Under the pieces are notes generated by a model. The model had not been told where the DNA came from and searched no databases. It saw only the letters and a program-made list of their open reading frames with translations. From Methanobacteriota archaeon (lineage in GTDB: Archaea; Thermoplasmatota; Poseidoniia; Poseidoniales; Poseidoniaceae), in NCBI GenBank assembly GCA_018659375.1, contig JABJMO010000002.1, forward strand, positions 76,373-140,372: a stretch of DNA of 64,000 nucleotides, written 5' to 3'. Each line of letters starts with the position of its first letter. Position 1 is the stretch's first letter. Made by a program: the position numbers and the translations under genes. This document shows positions 10,412 to 58,626 of this stretch, one piece after another.

Positions 10412-11716
10412 TCAAACTGATGGTAATAGTCCAATCTTGGCTAATCCATTCCAAACGGGATCTAAAAATCTTGGAAGTATCCTATGTCTTACATAAACAG
10501 CCGCAGCTAGACTCATCTTCTGCAGTTTGTTCAATTTTACCCTCTTGGTAAATACATCTCCTTGTTCTTTTTCGATTTGACGTAGGATTTTATCATAAAA
10601 TGCAATCATTGCGGCTGGAGAATATCTTGTTCTTCTAGGCAACAAGGGTAGTAATTGTCGAGCCTCTTCCAAATAGCTCCTTGCTCTTTTTGCGTAATGA
10701 TAGCAATATGGTTCCCAAGTCTTGTTAAGTACAACTTTACCATCAAGTTCCTTTTCCTGAATGCCATTCTTTTCCAATTCATCTAATGGCAGGTAAACAC
10801 GATCTCTTCCAATATCTTCACCAACATCTCTCAAAACATTGGTCAATTGCATGAAAATACCCCATGACTCGGCGTACTTCTTTGCTTTTGGGTCACTATA
10901 TCCATATATCTCAATGCACATCAAACCAACAACTGAAGCGACTCTGTAACAGTAGTCATATAACTCGTCAAAAGTTCGATAGCGATTGTTATACAAATCA
11001 TCCTCCATTCCAGAGATTAGGTCATCAAATACGCTCCTTGATATTTTATACCGGTCTACAGTATCTTTCAAAGCTAGGAACACAGGATCAGTTGAATAAA
11101 CATCAGAATAGCATGTTGAAAGTTTTTTTCTGAAGAAAAATAATTGAGTAATTTTGTTAAGATATGATTCTTCGTCCAAAATAGTTCCACGGTTTTGTAA
11201 AGATTCTAATTGTTCTCTGTAAGCGACAGCCTCTGGGTCAGTTTGTCCGTTGCTGCCTGGAAATCTGTCGGCCCAATCGCCGTCAGCAATGTCATCTGCT
11301 CTTCGACAAAATGCGTAAACTGCACACATGGCTAGTCTTTGTTCGTCTGGCAAATATTTGAATGAATGATAAAAGTTACCGGCTTCTTGCATAGTCAGTT
11401 TTTCACAGTACTGATATGCTAGTTTGAGCAATTCTTTGGGTGGCTTTTCTGACCAAATCGGAGCATCTAGGTTTTCAAATGGGTCGACAAGTTCATTTTT
11501 GTCAACTAACCCAATGAAAGCAACACCTTCACGCAATGCTTCCATTGCAGTTACACTAACTGCTTTTACTGCATCTTTGGCAAGCATTACACCAGCGCGA
11601 AGTCTATCTAGAGTAGTTATTTTTTCTACTTGCTCTTCGGAAATCCTACTATTTGCGCTTCCCTTGAGCGGGAATAACAAGTCGAGAGGTTTCCGTCGTT
11701 CTAACATCCCTATCAA
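10412..11716 (-). CDS. squalene/phytoene synthase family enzyme with about 100-aa N-terminal extension
   Basis: Asp-rich motifs YAFCRRADDIADGD and ISGMEDDL. YCYRVASVVGLMC and NVLRDVGEDIGRDRVYLP are typical of head-to-head trans-isoprenyl diphosphate synthases. Confidence 0.85.
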   Translation of the reverse strand: MIGMLERRKPLDLLFPLKGSANSRISEEQVEKITTLDRLRAGVMLAKDAVKAVSVTAMEALREGVAFIGLVDKNELVDPFENLDAPIWSEKPPKELLKLAYQYCEKLTMQEAGNFYHSFKYLPDEQRLAMCAVYAFCRRADDIADGDWADRFPGSNGQTDPEAVAYREQLESLQNRGTILDEESYLNKITQLFFFRKKLSTCYSDVYSTDPVFLALKDTVDRYKISRSVFDDLISGMEDDLYNNRYRTFDELYDYCYRVASVVGLMCIEIYGYSDPKAKKYAESWGIFMQLTNVLRDVGEDIGRDRVYLPLDELEKNGIQEKELDGKVVLNKTWEPYCYHYAKRARSYLEEARQLLPLLPRRTRYSPAAMIAFYDKILRQIEKEQGDVFTKRVKLNKLQKMSLAAAVYVRHRILPRFLDPVWNGLAKIGLLPSV

Positions 11717-38445: not shown

Positions 38446-39999
38446 ATGTCTAAAGAACCAGTAATCAAGAAGTGGTTCTTTGTTTGTTATGACCAATTAA
38501 ATCACGATTTATTCCCGTGGTCTTTCGGCAATCGTGCAGAAAACGGTCTAATTTTTATCGAATCGAAAATTAAAGGTGACTCGTTAAACTATCACCAACA
38601 AAAATTAGCATTATTACTCTCTAACATGCGACATTTTGCCAAAGAGTCAGAAGATTTAGGCCATCCGGTAAGGTATTACCACACTGATGGTAATTACTCT
38701 GATTTGTTGACAGAAATAACTAGTCAGTTAGGACCAATAAATTTGGTCGAGCCTGCGGAGAGGAGCATGCGAATGGAAGTTAAACCGCTAGTAGAAAGGG
38801 AGAGACTGCAAGTGCACCAACATGATGGATGGTTGACAAAGCGTGATTGGTTTAGCGAAACAGTTGGCACAGAGCCTCCGTTTAGAATGGACAGATTCTA
38901 CAAGAGAGTAAGAAAAGAAACCGGCGTTTTGATGCAAGATGGGAAACCAATGGGCGGTAAATTTAGCTTTGATGCTGAGAATCGTTTGCCATGGAAAGGC
39001 GACCCTGAGACACAATCCGACATTGACTTCGAAGTTGACCAAATCGATATGGAGGTAATGGAACTAGTTAGGTCAAAGTTTGCTGATCACCCAGGTAATT
39101 GCGATCTTAGTAAGGTCCCAACTACCTTAGAACAAAATCACCAGTTGCTAAAATGGGCTATGGACAATATGCAATATTTTGGCCCATATGAAGATGCAAT
39201 GAGTTCTAAAAGCCGGTTTTTATTCCATTCAAAATTAGCGATATCGACCAATCTCTCAAGACTATCAGCCAAAGAGATAGTAGATTCTGCTTTAATGACA
39301 GGAGCTCCATTAAATTGTCTTGAAGGATTTTATCGACAACTAATTTGGCGTGAATATGTTAAGCATGTTCATGATGTTACCGACGGTTTTCGGTCCCTAG
39401 AAGTATATGATATTCAATCTAATCAACCAAACTTCTTGCAACAAAACAATCCCCTGCCTGATGCCTTTTGGGGGAAGAAATCAGGATTTAATTGCTTGGA
39501 TACAGTAGTTGAATCGGTTATGGATGAGGGGTGGACCCATCACATTCCAAGATTGATGGTGTTGAGTAATTTTGCCAGCTTATTAGATATCAATCCAAGA
39601 AAACTGACTACATGGTTTCATGAAGCCTTTATCGATGCTTATGACTGGGTGGTTGAGCCAAATGTGCTTGGCATGGGCACCTATTCTTTAGGCTCTGCAA
39701 TGATGACTAAACCCTACGTTTCGGGTACTCCATACATCAACAAAATGTCAGATTACTGTAAAAGTTGTAAATTCAACCCGAAAAAAGATTGCAAGGTTTC
39801 AAATCTTTATTGGGCATTTCTCGAGCGACATAAGGATTCATTCGAGGGAAATATTAGGATGGCTATGCCACTTCGAAGTCTAGCAAAGCGCAGTGATGAC
39901 AAGAAGCGAGCAGATATAGAAGCATTTCAGGACATAAATGAGGCATTGACTAACGGCCAAGAATATCTGCCATACGTTGAGATGAAACCATTAATCTAG
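38446..39999 (+). CDS. FeS-BCP type cryptochrome/photolyase family protein (COG3046, (6-4) photolyase-like)
   Basis: NCLEGFYRQLIWREY and SDYCKSCKFNPKKDCKVSNLYWAFL supply the four Fe-S cysteines. The overall layout is that of the PhrB/CryB class. Confidence 0.82.
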   Translation: MSKEPVIKKWFFVCYDQLNHDLFPWSFGNRAENGLIFIESKIKGDSLNYHQQKLALLLSNMRHFAKESEDLGHPVRYYHTDGNYSDLLTEITSQLGPINLVEPAERSMRMEVKPLVERERLQVHQHDGWLTKRDWFSETVGTEPPFRMDRFYKRVRKETGVLMQDGKPMGGKFSFDAENRLPWKGDPETQSDIDFEVDQIDMEVMELVRSKFADHPGNCDLSKVPTTLEQNHQLLKWAMDNMQYFGPYEDAMSSKSRFLFHSKLAISTNLSRLSAKEIVDSALMTGAPLNCLEGFYRQLIWREYVKHVHDVTDGFRSLEVYDIQSNQPNFLQQNNPLPDAFWGKKSGFNCLDTVVESVMDEGWTHHIPRLMVLSNFASLLDINPRKLTTWFHEAFIDAYDWVVEPNVLGMGTYSLGSAMMTKPYVSGTPYINKMSDYCKSCKFNPKKDCKVSNLYWAFLERHKDSFEGNIRMAMPLRSLAKRSDDKKRADIEAFQDINEALTNGQEYLPYVEMKPLI

Positions 40000-47677: not shown

Positions 47678-47746
47678 TTTTACCGATTTCATCTTAGTCA
47701 ATCAACAATTAGTTTCATGTGTTGAATGCACATCGGATGATTGTTG

Positions 47747-50700
47747 ATGATGATGAGAAGACTATCTTCGGTAACTTTAGTGACCTTACTATTACTACAA
47801 ACATTAGCTCTGAACTATGTTCCTGAAGTTGATGCTGCAACCGCAAAAGGTGGCTCAAAGGATGACTTTAGTATCTTCAGCATAGAGGTTGGAAACCAGA
47901 CCATACCTACCGAAAAATGGATACAGCCAAACGGTGAGGTTATTGATTACTTACTACAAGATGATTTTATCGAAGTAAAGGTTACTGTTTACAAAGACGG
48001 TTCAGTAACTGGTGTACAAAAACAAACTGAAGCACTGTTAGAAATTGTTCATCCTATCGGTTTCGTAATCGAATCATTTGGCTGGACTACCGGATTGATG
48101 GCTGGTGGTGCTAAAGATGCAACAACAATCTCGTGGAATCCTCAAGAGGCTCATTCTGTTTTGGATACCAATACTAACGAACTATCAGGTGGGCTCATAC
48201 TTAGAGCATCAGTTAATTTCACTGCTGACGACAGAAACGATAATGATATAATGGAAAAGCAAGTACCAATCGCAGTATACAAAGACATCTTTGATGGTGA
48301 AGCCTCTGGTACCTCGCTCACCTTTAGACCAGCTCGCTATCCTATTGGTGGGGGTGACGCTAATGATTATGGCTCTTGGTATGAGGATAATACAGATGCA
48401 ACCTCCGGCAGTTCTCACTGGAGAATGTCTTTGCCAGGTGGTAACACATATCCGTCCAGTGCCTTTGACAGATTAGTTCACTCATATAAAAATCCAGATA
48501 ATAATTGCAATGGTGACCAGCTAGACTCTGGTTTGACAAATTTAGAACAAGCATGGGTTTGCCGTAAAATTTTCCAATCACAAAATTATATTTCCAGCCA
48601 AATACATCTTCAAGCATGGGGTACAATGGGTGCAGGAGATGCTGCTTACCTAGAGTTCTGGAATAACAATGGGAATTTTTCAGACCCGTTACAATCAGTA
48701 CATTGGGATGTTGCAGAAATAAATCCTAGTCCAATTCCAGGTCAATGGAAAAATATTTCCTGGGACCCGCAAACAGTATGGTCTCAAAATCCATCCTTAG
48801 CAAATCCAGATTTGTTCTTAGGCGGCAATTCATGGACCTTCGGTTTAGTATTCAGGTCAGACAGTTCAAGCGCAACTCAAGGTATGCATTTTGATGATTT
48901 TGTTCAATTCGGTGTCTCTAAGGTGGATGGTTTTACTCTTACTGCTAACTGTGATAATCCAGTTGGTGGATTTGAAACGGTGCCAAATGATTTAGTTTCA
49001 TGGAAGTGTTTAGTGACCAACAATGGCTACAAAAATGTCCAATTCCGAGCACAAACCAATGTCACAAATTCCTCATGGATGAACCCTACAGTGCCCCAGT
49101 TAAGGCTTGATACCACCAATCCAAATGACAACGATTTCAGTGTGGTTATTCCACCCATAGGTCCATTTGAAACCACTGAGGTTTGGGCGAATCTTTCTAT
49201 ACCGGTTGGCGCAGATGTCCAAATTCAAGATTGGGATATATGGTTTACTGATGCTAGTTCAGCCAACACAGGTGAGAAAGCTAGAGTGTCAACAACTGTT
49301 TCGATAGATTCTCAATACAGTGTGAGGCTAAACTCAAATGCCAATCAAATAGCGCTTACTATGACTCCGGGTGAAACTGCAAATCTACCATTCCAAATCA
49401 CCAATACCGGTAATTTAGATTCAACATTCGAGTTACGCTCAACCTTTAACGCAGAATTATGGAGCGGTACCATACAAGACGATGTTGGAAATGCTATTAC
49501 TTCTATATTTATGGAAAAGGGCACATCTACAGACTTATCGCTCTCCATATCTGCTGAACAGCAAGCCACTCCAGGTCAAATATCTGTCGAGATAAGGGCA
49601 ACAAGAACTAGCGGTAATGTGGTTGGCGATACAACTCTTAATCGGTTGATTAATGTACCAATCTATCGGGACAGCAACCTTGAGGTTGACTATTCATCAC
49701 CTTACTTTTCGACCGACGAAAGTGGTTTACCAGTAGTTGTTGGCTATGCTAATGGCGAAGAAAAAATGCTTAGAATGACGCTATTTAATAACGGTAATGA
49801 TGAAGAATCATTCAATATTACAGTGGCCAATAATTTCCCGATATATTACCGGCAAACAGGTGCAACTGTAGATAATGTTGAATCACCTTTGCTAAACGAA
49901 TGGGGTGGTACTTGGAGTTTCTTCTTGAATTTGCCAATGCCTCTTGGTCTGCCTGAGGGGTTTTACGATGTTATAGTGACTGCTACTAACGTGAACGACC
50001 CGTCACTATCCGTAAGTGAAGTAGTCTCGATTGAGGTCAAGAAAACTGCCAGTGTCCACGTTGAAACAGATATTTCTGACCAGTCTTACATCCCAGGTGA
50101 TCTTGCTCAATCAATGACTTTCGAAGTCACCAATAATGGAAATATCCAAGATACCTTTGAAATGAGTCTAAATCTCCCTCAAGGTATGAATGCTCAATTC
50201 ACCAACCTTGTTGATGGCTCAAAGACCGTACCAATCAATAGCGGTGCTAGTTACAACGTAACCGTCGAATTTTCGTTTGTTGAAGGTACCAGTGCTGATC
50301 TAAATATGGTAATCATTGCTAAGAGTCTTTTTGATGAGACGGTAATTGCTAGTGGTGGTTCAACTTACTCTGTTGGAAGTACCAATCAATTGTTGAAGAT
50401 TTTACCTTCACAGTTGGTCATAATCGACGACTTTGAAAATGAAGTAACCTTAGAAGTGACAGTTAGAAACCAATATTCAACAGCGCAATCAGTTTCGATG
50501 GACATCGGTGCTGGAAACTCTAGCAGTTGGTTCCAATCAAGAATTGATAGTAATGATCGACAATTTGTCCTTGGTACTGGAGATGATTCCATTAGGGTTA
50601 TTACAGTTACATTCCAAGTCACTGAATCAACTCTGATGACGCTTGATCAGCCAACATTTGATTCTGAAATAACACTCTATGCCAGGTCAGATACCGTCGC

Positions 50701-51196
50701 AGAAGTAGCTCAATCAGAAATCCAAGTCCAACTCAGGAAAATAATCATCGAAACGAACGATGATCAGGGTTCTTCTTTTGACCTTGCTGGAGCTGCAATG
50801 TGGTTTGGATTTGTTCTAGTAATGGTAGCAGGAATTGTGATTGCAATTAGAATTCTCAAGAATGTTGAAGATGAAGATGATGAATATGCCAATTGGGGGC
50901 AAGAAGGTTACCAAGATAGTATTACAGCAACATACCAATCGGTAATTTCTGCGCCTACGGTTCCATCAGGTCCGCCTGCAACCTTGCCATCATCCATGCC
51001 ACCTCAATCAGCACCACCTGCAAGTGTGCCATCATCTATGCCGCCGAAGTCTGCTCTACCAGCACAATCAGCACCATCTGCCCCTTCGCAACCGTCAGGA
51101 CCTCCTCTTCCAGCCACTGGACTACCCGCTGGGTGGACTATGGCACAATGGGGTGCATATGGCGCTCAGTGGCTTGAACAAAACGAGCAACAATAA
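47747..51196 (+). CDS. giant cell-surface protein with repeated CARDB-like beta-sandwich modules, C-terminal TM anchor and Pro-rich cytoplasmic tail
   Basis: Signal peptide. Recurring ..[VF].N.G[NY]....F.. strands (VTNNGYKNVQF, ITNTGNLDSTFEL, LFNNGNDEESFNI, VTNNGNIQDTFEM). TM helix MWFGFVLVMVAGIVIAI. Tail PSSMPPQSAPPASVPSSMPPKS... Confidence 0.7.
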   Translation: MMMRRLSSVTLVTLLLLQTLALNYVPEVDAATAKGGSKDDFSIFSIEVGNQTIPTEKWIQPNGEVIDYLLQDDFIEVKVTVYKDGSVTGVQKQTEALLEIVHPIGFVIESFGWTTGLMAGGAKDATTISWNPQEAHSVLDTNTNELSGGLILRASVNFTADDRNDNDIMEKQVPIAVYKDIFDGEASGTSLTFRPARYPIGGGDANDYGSWYEDNTDATSGSSHWRMSLPGGNTYPSSAFDRLVHSYKNPDNNCNGDQLDSGLTNLEQAWVCRKIFQSQNYISSQIHLQAWGTMGAGDAAYLEFWNNNGNFSDPLQSVHWDVAEINPSPIPGQWKNISWDPQTVWSQNPSLANPDLFLGGNSWTFGLVFRSDSSSATQGMHFDDFVQFGVSKVDGFTLTANCDNPVGGFETVPNDLVSWKCLVTNNGYKNVQFRAQTNVTNSSWMNPTVPQLRLDTTNPNDNDFSVVIPPIGPFETTEVWANLSIPVGADVQIQDWDIWFTDASSANTGEKARVSTTVSIDSQYSVRLNSNANQIALTMTPGETANLPFQITNTGNLDSTFELRSTFNAELWSGTIQDDVGNAITSIFMEKGTSTDLSLSISAEQQATPGQISVEIRATRTSGNVVGDTTLNRLINVPIYRDSNLEVDYSSPYFSTDESGLPVVVGYANGEEKMLRMTLFNNGNDEESFNITVANNFPIYYRQTGATVDNVESPLLNEWGGTWSFFLNLPMPLGLPEGFYDVIVTATNVNDPSLSVSEVVSIEVKKTASVHVETDISDQSYIPGDLAQSMTFEVTNNGNIQDTFEMSLNLPQGMNAQFTNLVDGSKTVPINSGASYNVTVEFSFVEGTSADLNMVIIAKSLFDETVIASGGSTYSVGSTNQLLKILPSQLVIIDDFENEVTLEVTVRNQYSTAQSVSMDIGAGNSSSWFQSRIDSNDRQFVLGTGDDSIRVITVTFQVTESTLMTLDQPTFDSEITLYARSDTVAEVAQSEIQVQLRKIIIETNDDQGSSFDLAGAAMWFGFVLVMVAGIVIAIRILKNVEDEDDEYANWGQEGYQDSITATYQSVISAPTVPSGPPATLPSSMPPQSAPPASVPSSMPPKSALPAQSAPSAPSQPSGPPLPATGLPAGWTMAQWGAYGAQWLEQNEQQ

Positions 51197-52888: not shown

Positions 52889-52986
52889 TCTGGCCGATAA
52901 ATTATCTCGCACAGCAAATCAACTCTCCTTGGGAGAGCAAGCAACCTTCAAAGACTACGGCGGTTTGGCATCACTGAGTGAGTATA

Positions 52987-55146
52987 ATGCCAGAAGTCGC
53001 TGATAGGAATCTTACCATCTATTTTGGTTCCCAAACAGGCAATGCAGAGGAACTTGCAAGTAAAACTGCTAAGTTAGCCAAAAAATTCAATCTCTCTGCG
53101 AAGGTAGTTGACCTTGGAGATATAAAACCAGAAGATTTTACTTCGTCAAAAAGAGCGCTCATCATCACTTCTACTTGGGGAGAAGGCGAGATGCCGGATA
53201 ACTCAGAATCTATTTGGGCAGCAACCTGTGAATCAAATCCAAATTTGTCTACAGTAAATTTCAGCATCTGTGCAATTGGTGACACATCATATGATGAATT
53301 CTGTAAGGCTGGATTAGATTGGGATGAGAAGTTCAAACAGCTTGGCGCCAACTGCGTTCATGATATTCAACTGTGTGATGTAGAATATGAACCCGAATGG
53401 CAAACATGGGCCAATTCAGCATTACAAGCAATGTCTGATGTAGACACTGGAACTGTAATGGTTGATGAGTCAGAAGCAACGGCACAAGTAGAAACAGCAT
53501 CCGCCCCAGTTGCCTCAGGAAGTGCCAGTGCAGGACTATCTTCTCTGTTTGAAGGTGACAGATCTCTAGCCATTTTATTTGGATCACAAACCGGAAATGC
53601 TGCTGCTCTGGCTGAAAAGACAGCGAAAATGGCTGCTGATTATGGATTGATTCCTACCGTTTACGATATGGATGGATTTGATGCAGCAACATTAGCAACT
53701 CACAAACGCACTCTGATAATCACTTCAACATGGGGCGAAGGAGAAATGCCTGATAATGCTGAATCACTATGGCAGGCGGTAAATTCTAACTCACCTTCAC
53801 TCTCTGGAGTAAATTTTAGTATTTGTGCAATCGGGGACACAGCTTATGACGAGTTTTGTAAAGCTGGAACTGACTGGGATGACAAATATGAATCGCTAGG
53901 GGCTAGTAGAGTCCACCAAATACAACTGTGCGATGTTGACTTTGAACCGCCATTTGTCACATGGGTTGCTCAGGCTTTGCCAAAGATTGCCTGTGTTGAC
54001 TCATCAGGAACCCTACAAATCGAGCTACTCGACGAAATGATTGCTTATGGTTCAAGTGGAGATGACGAAGTAGTTTCAGGAGATTTTGCTCCTGGGGTTG
54101 TGGATGAAACAGAACTAACTGTAACAGTCGAAATCTTCCGTTACTGCCCAAGTGCAGCCGAGTCCGGATGGGATACAATCGTATGTTCACTTCCTGCTAA
54201 TGCCTCCATACAAGACATGTTACTTGCCATCAAGAATGATGTTGACGGAAGTCTGACTTTCAGGATGGGTGACGGCAGTGGTACTGCAAGTTGTGGAATT
54301 AGAATCAACGGCAGACTTGTTCTCGCAGATACAACATCAATTGGAAGCGTTACTAAAGCAGATGGAAGATTAAAAATCGAACCACTATCTGGATACCCGG
54401 TCATTAGAGATTTGATGGTAGACTATTCGAAGTTTGAAGAAAACCGCATGAAAGCTAAGCCATGGATGCAATCTAATCCACGTGAGGGAGAGTACCTGTT
54501 AAACGGTATGGCGGTTGGAACAATGTCCAAAGAACAAGCGTCTAAACTACATTCTTCAAGTGACATTAAATCGTATTATTTACTTCACTCAATGTCTGAT
54601 ACAGTTACTTATGATTCAAAATACGAAGGCCCCGGAATTCATCTACAAAGATGGAATCGAGTCATCGACCCAAGGTCTAGCGAGACATTCAAGAACTCAC
54701 TTATTGATTCGCTAAATAACTCAACTGGAGTTTGGGGAGAAGCCGATCTAGCATCGATTGCTAGGTATGGGCAAGAGGGTAAAACAGCCTCATCCGGTCT
54801 CAATGACGTTCGCGCCTACATCCTAAACCAAACCAACTACAGAGGTCCACATGGAAGACTGGTCAAGTGGTACGGAAGAAGCGTCAAATGGACTGGTAAA
54901 TTGAACGAAACTACGCTATATCGCCAAGTTCTTGGCCCTATTGGCCTGCTGAGTAACATTTTCGATGGCGTTTCTGCTCGAATGGTACTAGGATTCACTA
55001 GAACTGGTGGGCCTCCGATTAGAAGTCTACAAGCATTGGTATTACCACCTTCAGGTATTGGTAAAATACCAAATATGTTCAATTCCAAAGTTAAGAACCA
55101 TCACCAAGTTGTCGGATTGTTTAACGAAATTGACCAGAGGTTTTGA
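52987..55146 (+). CDS. fusion protein: two flavodoxin-like FMN domains plus a cysteine-depleted SdhB/FrdB-like domain plus an unknown C-terminal extension
   Basis: Flavodoxin 1 at about 53011-53428 and flavodoxin 2 at about 53566-53983 (GSQTGNA...STWGEGEMPDN...FSICAIGDT.YDEFCKAG). The SdhB-like region at about 54100-54830 is colinear with E. coli SdhB but lacks the Fe-S Cys blocks. An alternative GTG start exists at 52978. Confidence 0.8.
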   Translation: MPEVADRNLTIYFGSQTGNAEELASKTAKLAKKFNLSAKVVDLGDIKPEDFTSSKRALIITSTWGEGEMPDNSESIWAATCESNPNLSTVNFSICAIGDTSYDEFCKAGLDWDEKFKQLGANCVHDIQLCDVEYEPEWQTWANSALQAMSDVDTGTVMVDESEATAQVETASAPVASGSASAGLSSLFEGDRSLAILFGSQTGNAAALAEKTAKMAADYGLIPTVYDMDGFDAATLATHKRTLIITSTWGEGEMPDNAESLWQAVNSNSPSLSGVNFSICAIGDTAYDEFCKAGTDWDDKYESLGASRVHQIQLCDVDFEPPFVTWVAQALPKIACVDSSGTLQIELLDEMIAYGSSGDDEVVSGDFAPGVVDETELTVTVEIFRYCPSAAESGWDTIVCSLPANASIQDMLLAIKNDVDGSLTFRMGDGSGTASCGIRINGRLVLADTTSIGSVTKADGRLKIEPLSGYPVIRDLMVDYSKFEENRMKAKPWMQSNPREGEYLLNGMAVGTMSKEQASKLHSSSDIKSYYLLHSMSDTVTYDSKYEGPGIHLQRWNRVIDPRSSETFKNSLIDSLNNSTGVWGEADLASIARYGQEGKTASSGLNDVRAYILNQTNYRGPHGRLVKWYGRSVKWTGKLNETTLYRQVLGPIGLLSNIFDGVSARMVLGFTRTGGPPIRSLQALVLPPSGIGKIPNMFNSKVKNHHQVVGLFNEIDQRF

Positions 55147-55154
55147 GTGATAAA

Positions 55155-56012
55155 ATGCCAAAGATTGCTTATTATCCTGGTAATGTTGCCCGAGCTGCTT
55201 CAATGGAAGTAGAGGATTGTATACAACCGCTATGCAAAACCTTGGGTATTGATTTAATTGAATTGCCAGAAGCGACTAGTGATGGTGGTAATATTATCAA
55301 GCAAGCTTCAACAAAATTACAACATGCTTTGGTTGCAAGAAACCTAGCATTGGCTGAAGAAAAAGGGCTAGATATCATGACTACTTGCGCAACAAGCCAT
55401 GGGATTATGAAAGATACTATGCAAGATTTGAAAGATGACCCTGTCTATTCTGCCCAATTAAATAACTTGATTGCCCGTTCTACGGGTGTTGAGTACCGAG
55501 GTGAAGCAGAGTCATGGCATCTATTGCACTACTTAGTAGAAGAGATTGGCCTTGACAAAATTAACGACGCAGTAATTAATCCAATCGATCTCAACATTGC
55601 ACCTTATTATGGACCAAATATGCAAAGAGAGGGGTTTTGTGCCCAAGACGACCCATTTATGCCGTCCTATCTAGAGCAACTCATTACCGCATTAGGTGGC
55701 CGACCGGTAAATTACGACTTAAAGTGTCAAAGTGTCGGTGCCCCCTCATTACTTACTCTAGAAAAACCCGTTATGTCCCTCATATCATCTGTTATTAGTG
55801 ACGCAAAATCAAATGGTGCTGATATAATAGTGAGTGCTTGTACAGTATCTCACTCAAACCTTGATTCATATCAATCTAAGGCAGGGCGTAAGACTGGTAA
55901 AAATACCAGTATACCTGTGATACATCTAGCTGAACTAGTAGCCTTTGCCTTGGGTCATTTCCCTGACAGATTGGCACAGTTGAGAACTAGAGCAATTTTG
56001 ATTGGTGGCTGA
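55155..56012 (+). CDS. HdrB/SdhE-like double CCG-domain protein with degenerate cysteine motifs
   Basis: Colinear with HdrB as I recall it from M. marburgensis: KIAYYPGN vs EIAYFLGC, ATSDGG vs ASCCPAPG, TTCATSHG vs TECNGCFG, PYYGPNM vs VHYGCHF, KCQSVGAP vs MCCGAGG, SACTVSHSNLD vs NVCPFCHLQFD, IPVIHLAELVAFALG vs IPVLHLAQLLGLAMG. Starts 8 nt after the upstream stop. Confidence 0.75.
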   Translation: MPKIAYYPGNVARAASMEVEDCIQPLCKTLGIDLIELPEATSDGGNIIKQASTKLQHALVARNLALAEEKGLDIMTTCATSHGIMKDTMQDLKDDPVYSAQLNNLIARSTGVEYRGEAESWHLLHYLVEEIGLDKINDAVINPIDLNIAPYYGPNMQREGFCAQDDPFMPSYLEQLITALGGRPVNYDLKCQSVGAPSLLTLEKPVMSLISSVISDAKSNGADIIVSACTVSHSNLDSYQSKAGRKTGKNTSIPVIHLAELVAFALGHFPDRLAQLRTRAILIGG

Positions 56013-56019
56013 AATTTAC

Positions 56020-58626
56020 TCAGGCATATAAAAAAGGCATAATAAGTTCATAATTCTCAGCGCTCAAAATCTCAGATAGCCTTGCTTTATCGGATTTTAA
56101 AATATCAGCGATTGAATCGAATCTGTCAAATAATTGAAGGCAAATTTCCAAATCTAAGTCAGTTATTTGACACAATATTGTTGCTTGCTTATTTATTCCA
56201 TCAGTATTCCACCTGGCTAACAAGGTGTGTGACTCATCACCTTGATTGACCATTGCTGCGATTTCTTGTGCAGCGTTGCTACAGTGCTTTTCAATGGCAC
56301 CATCTTCGATGCTTTGATACTTCACACAAGCGCGCATTTTCGTTGAAAAGTTTTGATTATTCCTAGCAATTAAAAATATCAAATGAGCAGATTCCATTGA
56401 GTCTTTTGTTGTCAAAATCGGCACGCCTAAGTCTAAACTAACATGTGCTAAAGCGCCGAGTACCGCGTTGGGGTGAACTGAATTGCCTATTTCTCCAAGT
56501 TCAATTAATAATATTGGCTGATTGGTAGATTGTCTCATTCTTTGGCACTGTTTGAACAATCTTTGATCAATTATTGAGGTTAGTAAGTCACGCGAAGTTT
56601 TCCGCTCAATTAGAATGTCCTTTGTTAACAAAATATCACCAGTTTCTAAGTTTTCAAATCTAACCGACATTCCAAGGCTGGTAAGATAGGCAGATAAAGT
56701 CGAAGACGCTTCCCGGTGATCAAGAACCACATTCATTTCAATGGTTTGAGATAAGGTTTGAATGACTTCATTAGTGGCTTTTATCGCAGATACTTCATGC
56801 TCTCTGGTAATCTTCTCAGTATTCTTTTCTTGAAAAAAGTCATCTAAGCCAGTCTGATTTCTCGGGCGCTTATCTTTTGGTGCAATAGCAGTTTGATTTA
56901 CCGGTGTATCGGGCTGTTCTATAGAATTTATATTAGTTTCATCTTTAATTATTTGATATTCAAGATTGAGTCGTTCTTGCTCAATTGTCAGGAATTTCTC
57001 GGCAGGAATTTGATTGTCTCCCAACTTGACTGCAAAACTCGATAGAACATCTCCAGAAGCTGGTTCGCGTAATGGGATTCGCCCCATTCGCTGTACTTCC
57101 TCAAGATTTTTGTACATACGTCGCTCTCTTACCTTAGCTGCATTGTTGACAAATTCATCCCTTGTGTTGCGCGCAATTAATGTCTTTACCGTACCCGAAC
57201 TCTGTCTAGCAGTACGTCCACGCCTTTGTATTGCTCTTATGGCGCTTGGCACCGGTTCATACATCAAAACGAGATCAGCAGATGGGACGTCCAATCCCTC
57301 TTCCCCAACAGATGTTGCAACCAGTACATTTACTTCTCCAGAGCGAAATTCTTCAAGTCTTGCCAATTGTTCTTTCTGCGTCATACCCTTTTGTTTTCCG
57401 CTAGTGGCTTGCCCAATAAATGGTGCTACCTTAACCTCATCAATATTTTTGAGTACTTGATTGAGATTTTGCACAGTGTATCTGTACTCTGTAAATATGA
57501 GAATACGTGAATTAGGATTTTCTTTCAACCTTTCAGTAATCATATCGCTTACTTGGGTGACCTTTGGGTGTATCTCGCCGAGTTTTTCAGCCGCCTTCCT
57601 GAAGTTGTGAATTACCGGTTTTGCAATGAATCGATTTGTCCCTCTGCCACCAGTTCTGCCTTCGTCTTCGGCTTTGTCGAGAAATAATGTTGCTGGTATT
57701 ACTCCTTGAGTCCTGAGCAAGTCTAGTAGCATGTGCATTCTGCGAACATCCGAAACTTTACGCGCAGCGTTGTAACCTCTAGCGTCTCTTCGACTAATTG
57801 CCCTGCTAACAGATTGCTGTGCATCGGTTATGATTTTTGAAGTGAGATTTTTTACTGGAGCCATAAAACCCATCCTCTGTAAGGTTTCAACTTCTGTTGA
57901 TTGATATTCTTGCAATGGGTAAATAAGTGTATTTAATGTGTCAGGAAGGTCGACTGGGACAATGTCGTTTTGTAAGTCGACAGCATATGGTTTTAGCATT
58001 ACTTCATCTCTTTTGGAGATGTCAAGCCTGTCGATTCCTAATCTTTTGGCAACCTCAAGTATCGATGATTTTGTAGTCCCAGGGCTGGCTGTAGCACCCA
58101 AAGTATAGCCATTAGGGTTGGCAGCAAGGAATAAGTCTCCAACTTGAGCGTAAGGATGATTTCCTGTGGCATGATGAGCCTCATCGAAAATTAACAACGC
58201 CACGTCACTTAAGGAAATAATGTTGTTAATTGCATCATTTCTAATCACTTGGGAAGTAGCCATCAAAATTTTACCTACATCCCACACTGAACGTCGCTTA
58301 CTTGGTGGTGTTTCACCGGTATATCTTACGATTGTCTCGGGATCTATGTTTAACATCTCTCGAGCCATTCTCTGTTGTTGATCGACTAATCCAGTAGTAG
58401 GCGCAATTAGAATTATTTTTTTGTCAGATAAACGGAGGGTCTCTGCCATGAGCATCCATTGTACTGCTGTTTTACCAAAACCTGTTGGCATTACCATCAA
58501 ACATGAAGATGTCAATGCGTTTTTTAGTGCCCTAATTTGATATCCCCTTGCTTCAACACCATCTTGTAAAAGCGGGTGTATCATCGTAGGCATCAAAGGT
58601 TCTTTTGGCCGAGGGTTCAAAAGCAT
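56020..58626 (-). CDS. hef: Hef helicase-nuclease (SF2 helicase plus ERCC4/XPF nuclease plus HhH2)
   Basis: PTGFGKT, DEAHH, QRRGRTAR, then the ERCC4 motif GDILL....ERKTSRDL and a C-terminal helix-hairpin-helix-like tail. Confidence 0.88.
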   Translation of the reverse strand: MLLNPRPKEPLMPTMIHPLLQDGVEARGYQIRALKNALTSSCLMVMPTGFGKTAVQWMLMAETLRLSDKKIILIAPTTGLVDQQQRMAREMLNIDPETIVRYTGETPPSKRRSVWDVGKILMATSQVIRNDAINNIISLSDVALLIFDEAHHATGNHPYAQVGDLFLAANPNGYTLGATASPGTTKSSILEVAKRLGIDRLDISKRDEVMLKPYAVDLQNDIVPVDLPDTLNTLIYPLQEYQSTEVETLQRMGFMAPVKNLTSKIITDAQQSVSRAISRRDARGYNAARKVSDVRRMHMLLDLLRTQGVIPATLFLDKAEDEGRTGGRGTNRFIAKPVIHNFRKAAEKLGEIHPKVTQVSDMITERLKENPNSRILIFTEYRYTVQNLNQVLKNIDEVKVAPFIGQATSGKQKGMTQKEQLARLEEFRSGEVNVLVATSVGEEGLDVPSADLVLMYEPVPSAIRAIQRRGRTARQSSGTVKTLIARNTRDEFVNNAAKVRERRMYKNLEEVQRMGRIPLREPASGDVLSSFAVKLGDNQIPAEKFLTIEQERLNLEYQIIKDETNINSIEQPDTPVNQTAIAPKDKRPRNQTGLDDFFQEKNTEKITREHEVSAIKATNEVIQTLSQTIEMNVVLDHREASSTLSAYLTSLGMSVRFENLETGDILLTKDILIERKTSRDLLTSIIDQRLFKQCQRMRQSTNQPILLIELGEIGNSVHPNAVLGALAHVSLDLGVPILTTKDSMESAHLIFLIARNNQNFSTKMRACVKYQSIEDGAIEKHCSNAAQEIAAMVNQGDESHTLLARWNTDGINKQATILCQITDLDLEICLQLFDRFDSIADILKSDKARLSEILSAENYELIMPFLYA

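Follow-up and report, generated by a model that had tools for sequence, protein, structure and literature searches.

Heterodisulfide reductase subunit B (HdrB; PDB 5ODC, 8RVV; TIGR03288) of methanogens consists of two tandem CCG domains, in which the signature Cx31-39CCx35-36CxxC occurs twice. Its 10 Cys bind two noncubane [4Fe-4S] clusters, with Cys81 and Cys234 as the bridging Cys of the catalytic irons (PMC13083937), and its partners are HdrC and HdrA. The same domains are found in SdhE (formerly SdhC) of the type-E succinate:quinone reductases (SQR) of Sulfolobus and Acidianus and in MfrE of Campylobacter (NF042965), proteins of about 285 amino acids with no transmembrane helices. SdhE has all 10 Cys and its iron-sulfur (Fe-S) clusters (PMC2754724), and type-E operons (SdhABEF) also include sdhA and an SdhB with three clusters (2Fe-2S, 4Fe-4S, and a second 4Fe-4S). 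Here we describe a 64,000-nucleotide window from an archaeon of the order Poseidoniales (Marine Group II, MGII; GCA_018659375.1, contig JABJMO010000002.1, positions 76,373 to 140,372), in which gene B (55155..56012, + strand) encodes an HdrB/SdhE-like protein whose two domains derive from CCG domains and whose cluster sites have both been dismantled. Gene B is an ATG open reading frame (ORF) of 285 amino acids, and it directly follows gene A (52978..55146, + strand), whose 722-amino acid product combines two flavodoxin domains with a cluster-less SdhB-like half. The host is an aerobic non-methanogen, in contrast to the methanogens of HdrB. We conclude with high confidence that gene B is a functional, cluster-less descendant of HdrB/SdhE that is partnered with gene A.

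Ligand positions were set by HMMER, MAFFT, and hhalign alignments to HdrB and canonical relatives, which agree except at the second CC pair, and residues were scored in a family set of 226 full-length members from Poseidoniaceae and Thalassarchaeaceae. Eight of the 10 HdrB ligand positions are replaced in gene B, and the survivors are the first Cys of each CxxC (C78 and C229). In the first domain, Asn 10 (55182..55184, this and all following sites on the + strand) stands for Cys 1 of the CCG motif (PGC to PGN) and is Asn in 226/226 family sequences, while Ser 42 and Asp 43 (55278..55283) stand for the first CC pair in the alignments to HdrB. The CxxC of this domain is now C78-A-T-S81 (55386..55397), with an invariant C78 and with S81 at the position of the bridging, substrate-displaced Cys of HdrB. 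In the second domain, Pro 154 (55614..55616) stands for Cys 1 of the motif (YYGC to YYGP) in both the HdrB and the profile alignments, and Ser 193 and Val 194 (55731..55736), placed by HMMER and hhalign and invariant in the family, stand for the second CC pair. The second CxxC (CPxC) has become C229-T-V-S232 (55839..55850), in which C229, S232, and the next residue, His 233, are all invariant. The equivalents of HdrB Cys81 and Cys234 are among the Cys that have been lost. Measured against the full signature, gene B retains 2/10 Cys and the family as a whole 2–3/10.

The six Cys of gene B lie at residues 22, 27, 78, 162, 191, and 229, and there are zero CC dipeptides, as a first-pass annotation of this DNA had read from the sequence. 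That annotation had counted seven of the 10 signature Cys as lost; the loss stands, and the profile alignment puts it at eight. Of the replacements it listed, GN, SD, CATS, GP, and CTVS are correct, whereas the second CC pair had been placed at CQ (C191-Q192), two residues before the true site at S193-V194. An alignment artefact hiding Cys of gene B was ruled out, since HMMER, MAFFT, and hhalign agree and their sole discrepancy raises the loss from seven to eight; aligning the ligand columns to the profile likewise restored none of the CCG Cys. With eight of 10 ligands gone, neither noncubane [4Fe-4S] cluster can form as known, in line with what had been proposed. The family has also acquired conserved residues. 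Cys 162 (55638..55640) is 97–100% conserved at a position without Cys in the canonical consensus, and another gain is the invariant His125. There are three invariant His overall, and His122, His125, and His233 are candidate ligands. Residue 43 (55281-55283) is Asp in 112/112 sequences of the first search and Cys in 113/113 sequences of a P0121-seeded search, a set that includes proteins named Thalassarchaeum; Asp is the fixed residue in MGIIa and Cys in the Thalassarchaeum-type (MGIIb) clade.

The fold and inter-domain cleft of HdrB/SdhE are kept. The HdrB model TIGR03288 matches the gene B protein with E=5e-40, aligning residues 3–274 with model positions 1–275 of 290, and NF042965, the model for SdhE of methylmenaquinol:fumarate reductase (MFR), matches with E=7e-32. 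Solved HdrB chains in the PDB match with E=1e-33, and hhalign against canonical relatives gives a probability of 100. An AlphaFold2 model built from 32 family sequences (predicted local distance difference test, pLDDT, 88; predicted template modelling score, pTM, 0.88) superimposes on HdrB in Foldseek with a template modelling (TM) score of 0.86, at 26–29% identity in the structure alignments. The match is full-length and collinear and shares the CxxxH...NLD motif, the ARN motif, and the domain cleft with HdrB, which agrees with the block-for-block relation to HdrB and SdhE noted at first pass. By structure, then, gene B has the two tandem CCG domains and HdrB fold of the family, and it scores below all three curated cut-offs: 137.6 bits against 345 for TIGR03288, 111 bits against 500 for NF042965, and 20.2 bits against a gathering threshold of 20.6 for Pfam CCG (PF02754). 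An alternative in-frame TTG start is present at 55143, though the orthologues start at ATG. The gene B protein of a North Sea metagenome-assembled genome (MAG; QXXX01000012) is 99.6–100% identical to the window copy.

The replacements at the former ligand positions are fixed. N10, S42, C78, S193, V194, C229, and S232 are invariant across the 226 family members, and the invariant residues cluster at the ex-ligand motifs (YYPGN, SDG, TxCA, HLLH, YYG, SVG, and SACTxSHxNLDxYQ), making the ex-cluster cleft the most conserved part of the protein. We measured the ratio of nonsynonymous to synonymous substitutions (dN/dS) by the Nei-Gojobori method in two comparisons, one with a close relative at dS 0.28 and one with a more distant relative at dS 1.4, and gene B gave 0.005 in both cases. 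This is below the values for the thermosome (0.02) and for rpl3 and rpl4 (0.009–0.026); gene A gave 0.03 and Hef 0.09–0.11. The gene B ORF is intact in every locus. The loss of eight of 10 defining Cys and the scores under the family cut-offs are what a decaying relic or pseudogene might look like, yet a dN/dS of 0.005, intact ORFs, and invariant replacements across the order rule this reading out, and we consider it practically untenable. The first-pass argument that the pair does not reflect random decay therefore holds: both genes have intact ORFs and evolve under strong purifying selection, with low dN/dS, fixed adjacency, fixed replacements, and a real gene order.

To place the family, an exhaustive HMMER search of a library of 1.84 billion representative proteins was made, and 126 full-length representatives were scored for Cys. 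All 10 Cys are present in 111 of these and nine in another 9, with 2–3 found in the gene B family only. The entire family forms one 50%-identity cluster, and the next full-length relatives are 35–37% identical. Within this library, a partly intermediate state occurs in the MGIIb clade with C43 only; the remaining matches with reduced Cys are truncated proteins or have lost no more than part of one domain. The canonical proteins closest to the family come from bacteria (Dehalococcoidia, Gloeobacter, Thermovibrio, and Veillonella); they match HdrB and MFR SdhE with equal scores and are named as heterodisulfide reductase or as Sdh/Frd subunits. The gene B family is order-wide in Poseidoniales (MGIIa and MGIIb). 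In the literature, we found nothing relevant on Cys-less HdrB or on MGII flavodoxin, and no description of a family with both CCG sites dismantled yet strongly constrained.

The partner, gene A, has a comparable history of cluster loss in one part. Pfam identifies Flavodoxin_1 twice (E=4e-55) and Fer2_3 (E=7e-14), and the NCBIfam SdhB models match the C-terminal half with E=1e-22 (PRK12576), as do the MfrB and TfrB models (TfrB model NF004898, E=3e-10). Flavodoxin domain 1 (53011..53427, + strand) and flavodoxin domain 2 (53566..53982, + strand) both match PF00258 and both carry the GSQTGNA phosphate-loop motif ((F/Y)GSQTGNA). Domain 2 is present in nearly all complete orthologues scored; domain 1 is a swappable N-terminal cassette, and most orthologues have a four-Cys ferredoxin in its place. 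The SdhB-like half (54109..55143, + strand) has no conserved Fe-S ligand: in the alignment to E. coli SdhB, none of the 2Fe-2S, 4Fe-4S, and 3Fe-4S ligand positions is Cys, and these columns hold a conserved Cys in none of 69 gene A orthologues. Gene A therefore lacks the three-cluster arrangement (2Fe-2S, 4Fe-4S, second 4Fe-4S) of a type-E SdhB. The model of this half has moderate confidence (pLDDT 64), and with it Foldseek finds SdhB chains (E=1e-11).

Conservation in gene A peaks in a near-invariant, basic and aromatic C-terminal tail (GRLVKWYGRSVKW...NETTLYRQVLGP...; residues 624–722, 54847..55143, + strand) with many invariant Arg, Lys, Trp, and Tyr residues. Pfam gives no match to residues 624–722, residues 635–706 are modelled at pLDDT below 50, and the hydrophobic moment of the tail gives a weak amphipathic signal. 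No transmembrane helices were found in either protein. From these features, the tail may pack against a partner or a membrane, and we consider it a candidate interface with gene B or with the membrane.

The first ~190 residues of gene A (52978–53560) make up the exchangeable cassette. In 69 complete species-level orthologues, this position is held by a ferredoxin domain in 54 and by a second flavodoxin in 15, the window included. The ferredoxin cassette contains CxxCxxC, then ~55 residues, then CP, with Cys at 0, +3, +6, and +61, and the orthologues of this type match Fer4_13/Fer4_15 (PF13370/PF13459), as expected for a single-cluster carrier. Close relatives are 92–100% identical over flavodoxin 2, the SdhB-like half, and B, while their first 190 residues are unrelated (ferredoxin-type loci L009-L011, L018, and L033 against flavodoxin-type loci L012-L017 and L032). 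A neighbor-joining tree of the conserved part requires at least 10 cassette switches, and this mosaic pattern suggests recombination or long-lived polymorphism.

Flavodoxin 1 is a diverged copy of flavodoxin 2 (53–71% identity). Judged from the sequences, it looks to have spread by recombination within MGIIa. In an MGIIb example, flavodoxin 1 is closest to that protein's own flavodoxin 2, which suggests an independent duplication there; we rejected independent duplication as the general origin, since it is supported for the MGIIb example only and the MGIIa mosaic points to cassette exchange. We infer that the cassette behaves as a generic low-potential one-electron carrier. These data also refine the earlier description of the pair as an iron-free module of two Cys-depleted proteins. 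The SdhB-like and SdhE-like parts do lack cluster sites, including the ligand Cys of the SdhB-like half, but the partner has a ferredoxin, with its Cys, in 54 of the 69 species, so "iron-free" fits the flavodoxin-flavodoxin allele only.

Genes A and B are consistently found together. The spacer between the gene A stop (55144-55146) and the gene B ATG is 8 nt (55147..55154, + strand; GTGATAAA), as first reported, with AGAGG 14 nt upstream of the ATG, and because of these two features the genes probably share one transcript. A scan of the genome collection turned up relatives in 286 stretches, from which 80 loci were retained, and 83 loci were fetched with at most 10 kb on either side. A lies directly before B in 83/83 of the fetched loci, with 12–25 nt between the tblastn matches to A and B, and the adjacency also occurs in MGIIb loci. 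An SdhB-like gene directly before an SdhE-like gene is the order of type-E SQR, and the proposal that this order is preserved, and that the two genes co-occur across genomes, is borne out by the model matches and by this adjacency. The block order is thermosome, A, B, Hef (a convergent helicase/nuclease), and the rpl3 ribosomal operon, and it is kept in MGIIb loci; Pereira et al. noted the same gene order in 2019 with automatic names only (PMC6741140). No SdhA-like gene occurs within ~10 kb in the loci with listed called genes, nor among the scanned ORFs of the 64-kb window, so that the pair is at most a candidate member of a type-E succinate dehydrogenase; sdhA is present elsewhere in MGII genomes.

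Gene B resembles SdhE and MfrE in its gene order, its length, and its lack of transmembrane helices, but is without the 10 Cys and the clusters. At the level of the operon, A-B differs from the type-E enzymes in having no sdhA nearby, no ligands in the SdhB-like and SdhE-like parts, and a fused flavodoxin/ferredoxin. Where HdrB has HdrC and HdrA, gene B has an SdhB-like partner. TfrB of thiol:fumarate reductase shows the same pairing of SdhB-like and HdrB-like halves, although as a single chain with all clusters and no flavodoxin, whereas A-B has two chains with the flavodoxin fused to A. PDB 3KWL, an uncharacterised 514-amino acid Helicobacter pylori protein, is also a single chain without flavodoxin. 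It matches both the A SdhB-like model (E=3e-6) and the B model (E=8e-10, TM 0.73), and a fused version of the SdhB-like/HdrB-like pairing has therefore already been solved. P0222 was rejected as a relative of 3KWL because it is an HdrC-HdrB fusion.

Changes to CCG clusters in aerobes are known from EtfD, whose 3Fe-4S cluster is linear after a single Cys-to-Thr change, and from FadF and DgcB, which are without the ligands of one cluster (PMC13083937). These three proteins keep at least one CCG cluster along with cubane clusters and heme, forming a continuous wire. In gene B, both sites are dismantled and there is no such wire. Partial loss or remodelling of CCG clusters was thus known before; what appears to be new here is the dismantling of both sites under strong constraint.

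What this pair does can be approached from its nearest relatives and its domains. We tentatively favor a ferredoxin/flavodoxin-to-quinone entry into the respiratory chain, in which B would provide both the acceptor site and the anchor, a role that we regard as possible rather than established. Flavodoxin-fold flavin mononucleotide (FMN) proteins such as WrbA and NQO-type enzymes can reduce quinones directly. This capacity, the bacterial HdrB/SdhE-type relatives of gene B, and the core genes of MGII together led us to this reading. SdhE-type proteins have been proposed as quinone-reactive monotopic anchors in type-E enzymes (PMC2754724), and by analogy the nearest bacterial relatives may be such anchors. 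The MGII core genome includes korAB, fdxA, and rnfB, with the Rnf complex absent apart from RnfB (PMC6336850, text and supplement).

In such a flavin-based ferredoxin/flavodoxin oxidoreductase, the SdhB-like half of A and B would pair as SdhB and SdhE do in type-E SQR, and as the two halves do in TfrB, to form a cofactor-poor platform, possibly on the membrane surface. The N-terminal ferredoxin or flavodoxin cassette would accept single low-potential electrons from a soluble enzyme that uses either carrier, the obvious candidate donor being the core 2-oxoacid:ferredoxin oxidoreductase, and would hand them to the FMN of the constant flavodoxin. Since there is no Fe-S wire, this FMN would be the last cofactor before the acceptor, reacting with it directly, either in the invariant, remodelled cleft of B or at the interface between A and B. 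The acceptor would most likely be a quinone, given the presumed ancestral role of SdhE. B would then have given up the iron-sulfur chemistry at the end of the chain.

Several observations weigh against this proposal. Without Fe-S centers, the flavodoxin FMN would have to dock within ~14 Å of the acceptor, and membrane association is suggested by the SdhE analogy and the weak amphipathic signal only. The conserved C78, C229, C162, D/C43, and His residues would suit a thiol or metal site no less than a quinone pocket. The window MAG comes from the coastal North Sea, with no pointer to iron scarcity as a driver. B may also, or instead, serve an ordinary SdhAB; it is probably the sole "sdhC" of the MGII core genome.

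This last point leads to a different assignment, in which B is the SdhE-type monotopic anchor of the Poseidoniales complex II and works with SdhA and a canonical SdhB from other loci, or with A in place of SdhB, and in which the SdhE clusters were structural only and have been replaced by side chains. The sdh genes listed for the MGII core genome are sdhA and a single gene cluster each for sdhB and sdhC, without sdhD, and the nearest canonical relatives, being bacterial and scoring equally as HdrB and SdhE, would suit such a role. A merely structural role for the SdhE cluster was put forward as a possibility by Hamann et al. (PMC2754724). However, B never adjoins sdhA or a canonical sdhB and always adjoins A, and a purely structural role poorly explains the invariant polar residues at the ex-ligand positions and a dN/dS of 0.005. 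We consider this assignment unlikely.

The two surviving Cys invite two further explanations, each of which we rate as rather improbable. B could be a thiol enzyme, with C78 and C229 forming either a redox dithiol/disulfide that FMN supplies with electrons, which would make B an iron-free heir to heterodisulfide reduction, or a two-base pair of the kind used by Asp/Glu racemases and maleate isomerase. Each CxxC has kept its first Cys only, both of these Cys are invariant, and in the model each lies at a strand-to-helix junction just before the helix, one per domain. The Asp/Glu/hydantoin racemases (PF01177) likewise have two Rossmann-like domains with one Cys each at this junction, and Asp/Glu racemases are the first non-CCG matches in Foldseek (E about 3e-4). 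Pfam Asp_Glu_race also matches weakly in 12 of 32 family members (best E=7e-4), compared to 2 of 32 canonical relatives, and two database clusters have a precomputed PF01177 match. The racemase TM scores are only about 0.35 (0.33–0.38, with 0.36–0.38 for the best racemase matches), though, and the profile scores fall far under the gathering threshold; the window protein itself gives a weak match of 13.8 bits against a cut-off of 31 (E=0.049). The CxxxH resemblance is partly inherited from canonical HdrB, whose profile also touches aspartate racemase, and the likeness probably reflects deep fold-level relatedness that canonical HdrB shares. A cofactor-free racemase, moreover, has no redox partner and would need no ferredoxin or flavodoxin beside it.

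Alternatively, B may not be metal-free, and a new small site made from C78, C229, C162, D43/C43, and His122/His125/His233 could hold a single metal ion, or a small cluster that is stable to oxygen, where the two domains meet. The lineage-fixed Cys/Asp exchange at residue 43 and the gains of C162 and His125 are typical of ligand sets, and single Cys changes alter the CCG cluster type in EtfD, FadF, and DgcB (PMC13083937). The ex-ligand loops also have the lowest pLDDT in an otherwise confident model. Yet the remaining pattern fits no known cluster type within either domain, and the four candidate ligands would have to be drawn from two formerly separate sites.

The Hef-type helicase/ERCC4 nuclease (56020-58626, − strand), convergent with B, is the least constrained gene of the block; in MGIIb loci it is called at 579 amino acids only and has no ERCC4 domain match. 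Upstream, at 47741-51196 (+ strand), a 1151-amino acid ORF combines a signal-like segment at the N terminus with a hydrophobic helix at the C terminus and a tail rich in Pro, Ser, and Ala. It probably encodes a large surface protein and evolves faster than its neighbors (dN/dS 0.06–0.09). A photolyase-related protein (DPRP plus an FAD-binding photolyase domain; 38446-39999, + strand) and a phytoene/squalene synthase (10412-11716, − strand) are consistent with a light-exposed, carotenoid-making archaeon of the surface ocean.

The public names of these proteins fit none of the sequences. Members of the gene B family are called "heterodisulfide reductase iron-sulfur subunit B" or "succinate dehydrogenase cytochrome b subunit," and the partner is called "sulfite reductase flavoprotein." Labels that make gene B an iron-sulfur subunit, a heterodisulfide reductase, or a cytochrome b subunit should be avoided. 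In the MGII core genome, the sdhC annotation probably belongs to gene B alone, and full-length A is more likely to have been labelled cysJ than sdhB, although the Joint Genome Institute (JGI) label for A fragments without the flavodoxin is SdhB iron-sulfur subunit. As a result of this misannotation of the family and its partner, reconstructions of MGII respiration partly rest on a wrong label.

There is a slim chance that the SdhB/SdhE scaffold carries out a respiratory-type redox reaction without any iron-sulfur wire, with the FMN of a tethered flavodoxin doing the job of five Fe-S clusters. If so, the reaction would be ferredoxin/flavodoxin:quinone reduction, or the succinate/fumarate step of complex II if A is a working SdhB. 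In the flavodoxin-flavodoxin variants, the window included, the whole module would then be iron-free, an oxygen- and iron-proof redesign in highly abundant archaea of the surface ocean. The exchange of ferredoxin and flavodoxin cassettes is in itself a natural experiment on carrier equivalence, and it could mark adaptation to iron or oxygen. CCG proteins (HdrB, SdhE, GlpC, LutA, DsrK, and EtfD) are defined by their unusual Fe-S clusters, and the gene B family shows that the scaffold can do something else. As a core gene of Poseidoniales, which make up a major share of surface-ocean archaea, it offers a natural test case for what the CCG clusters are needed for.

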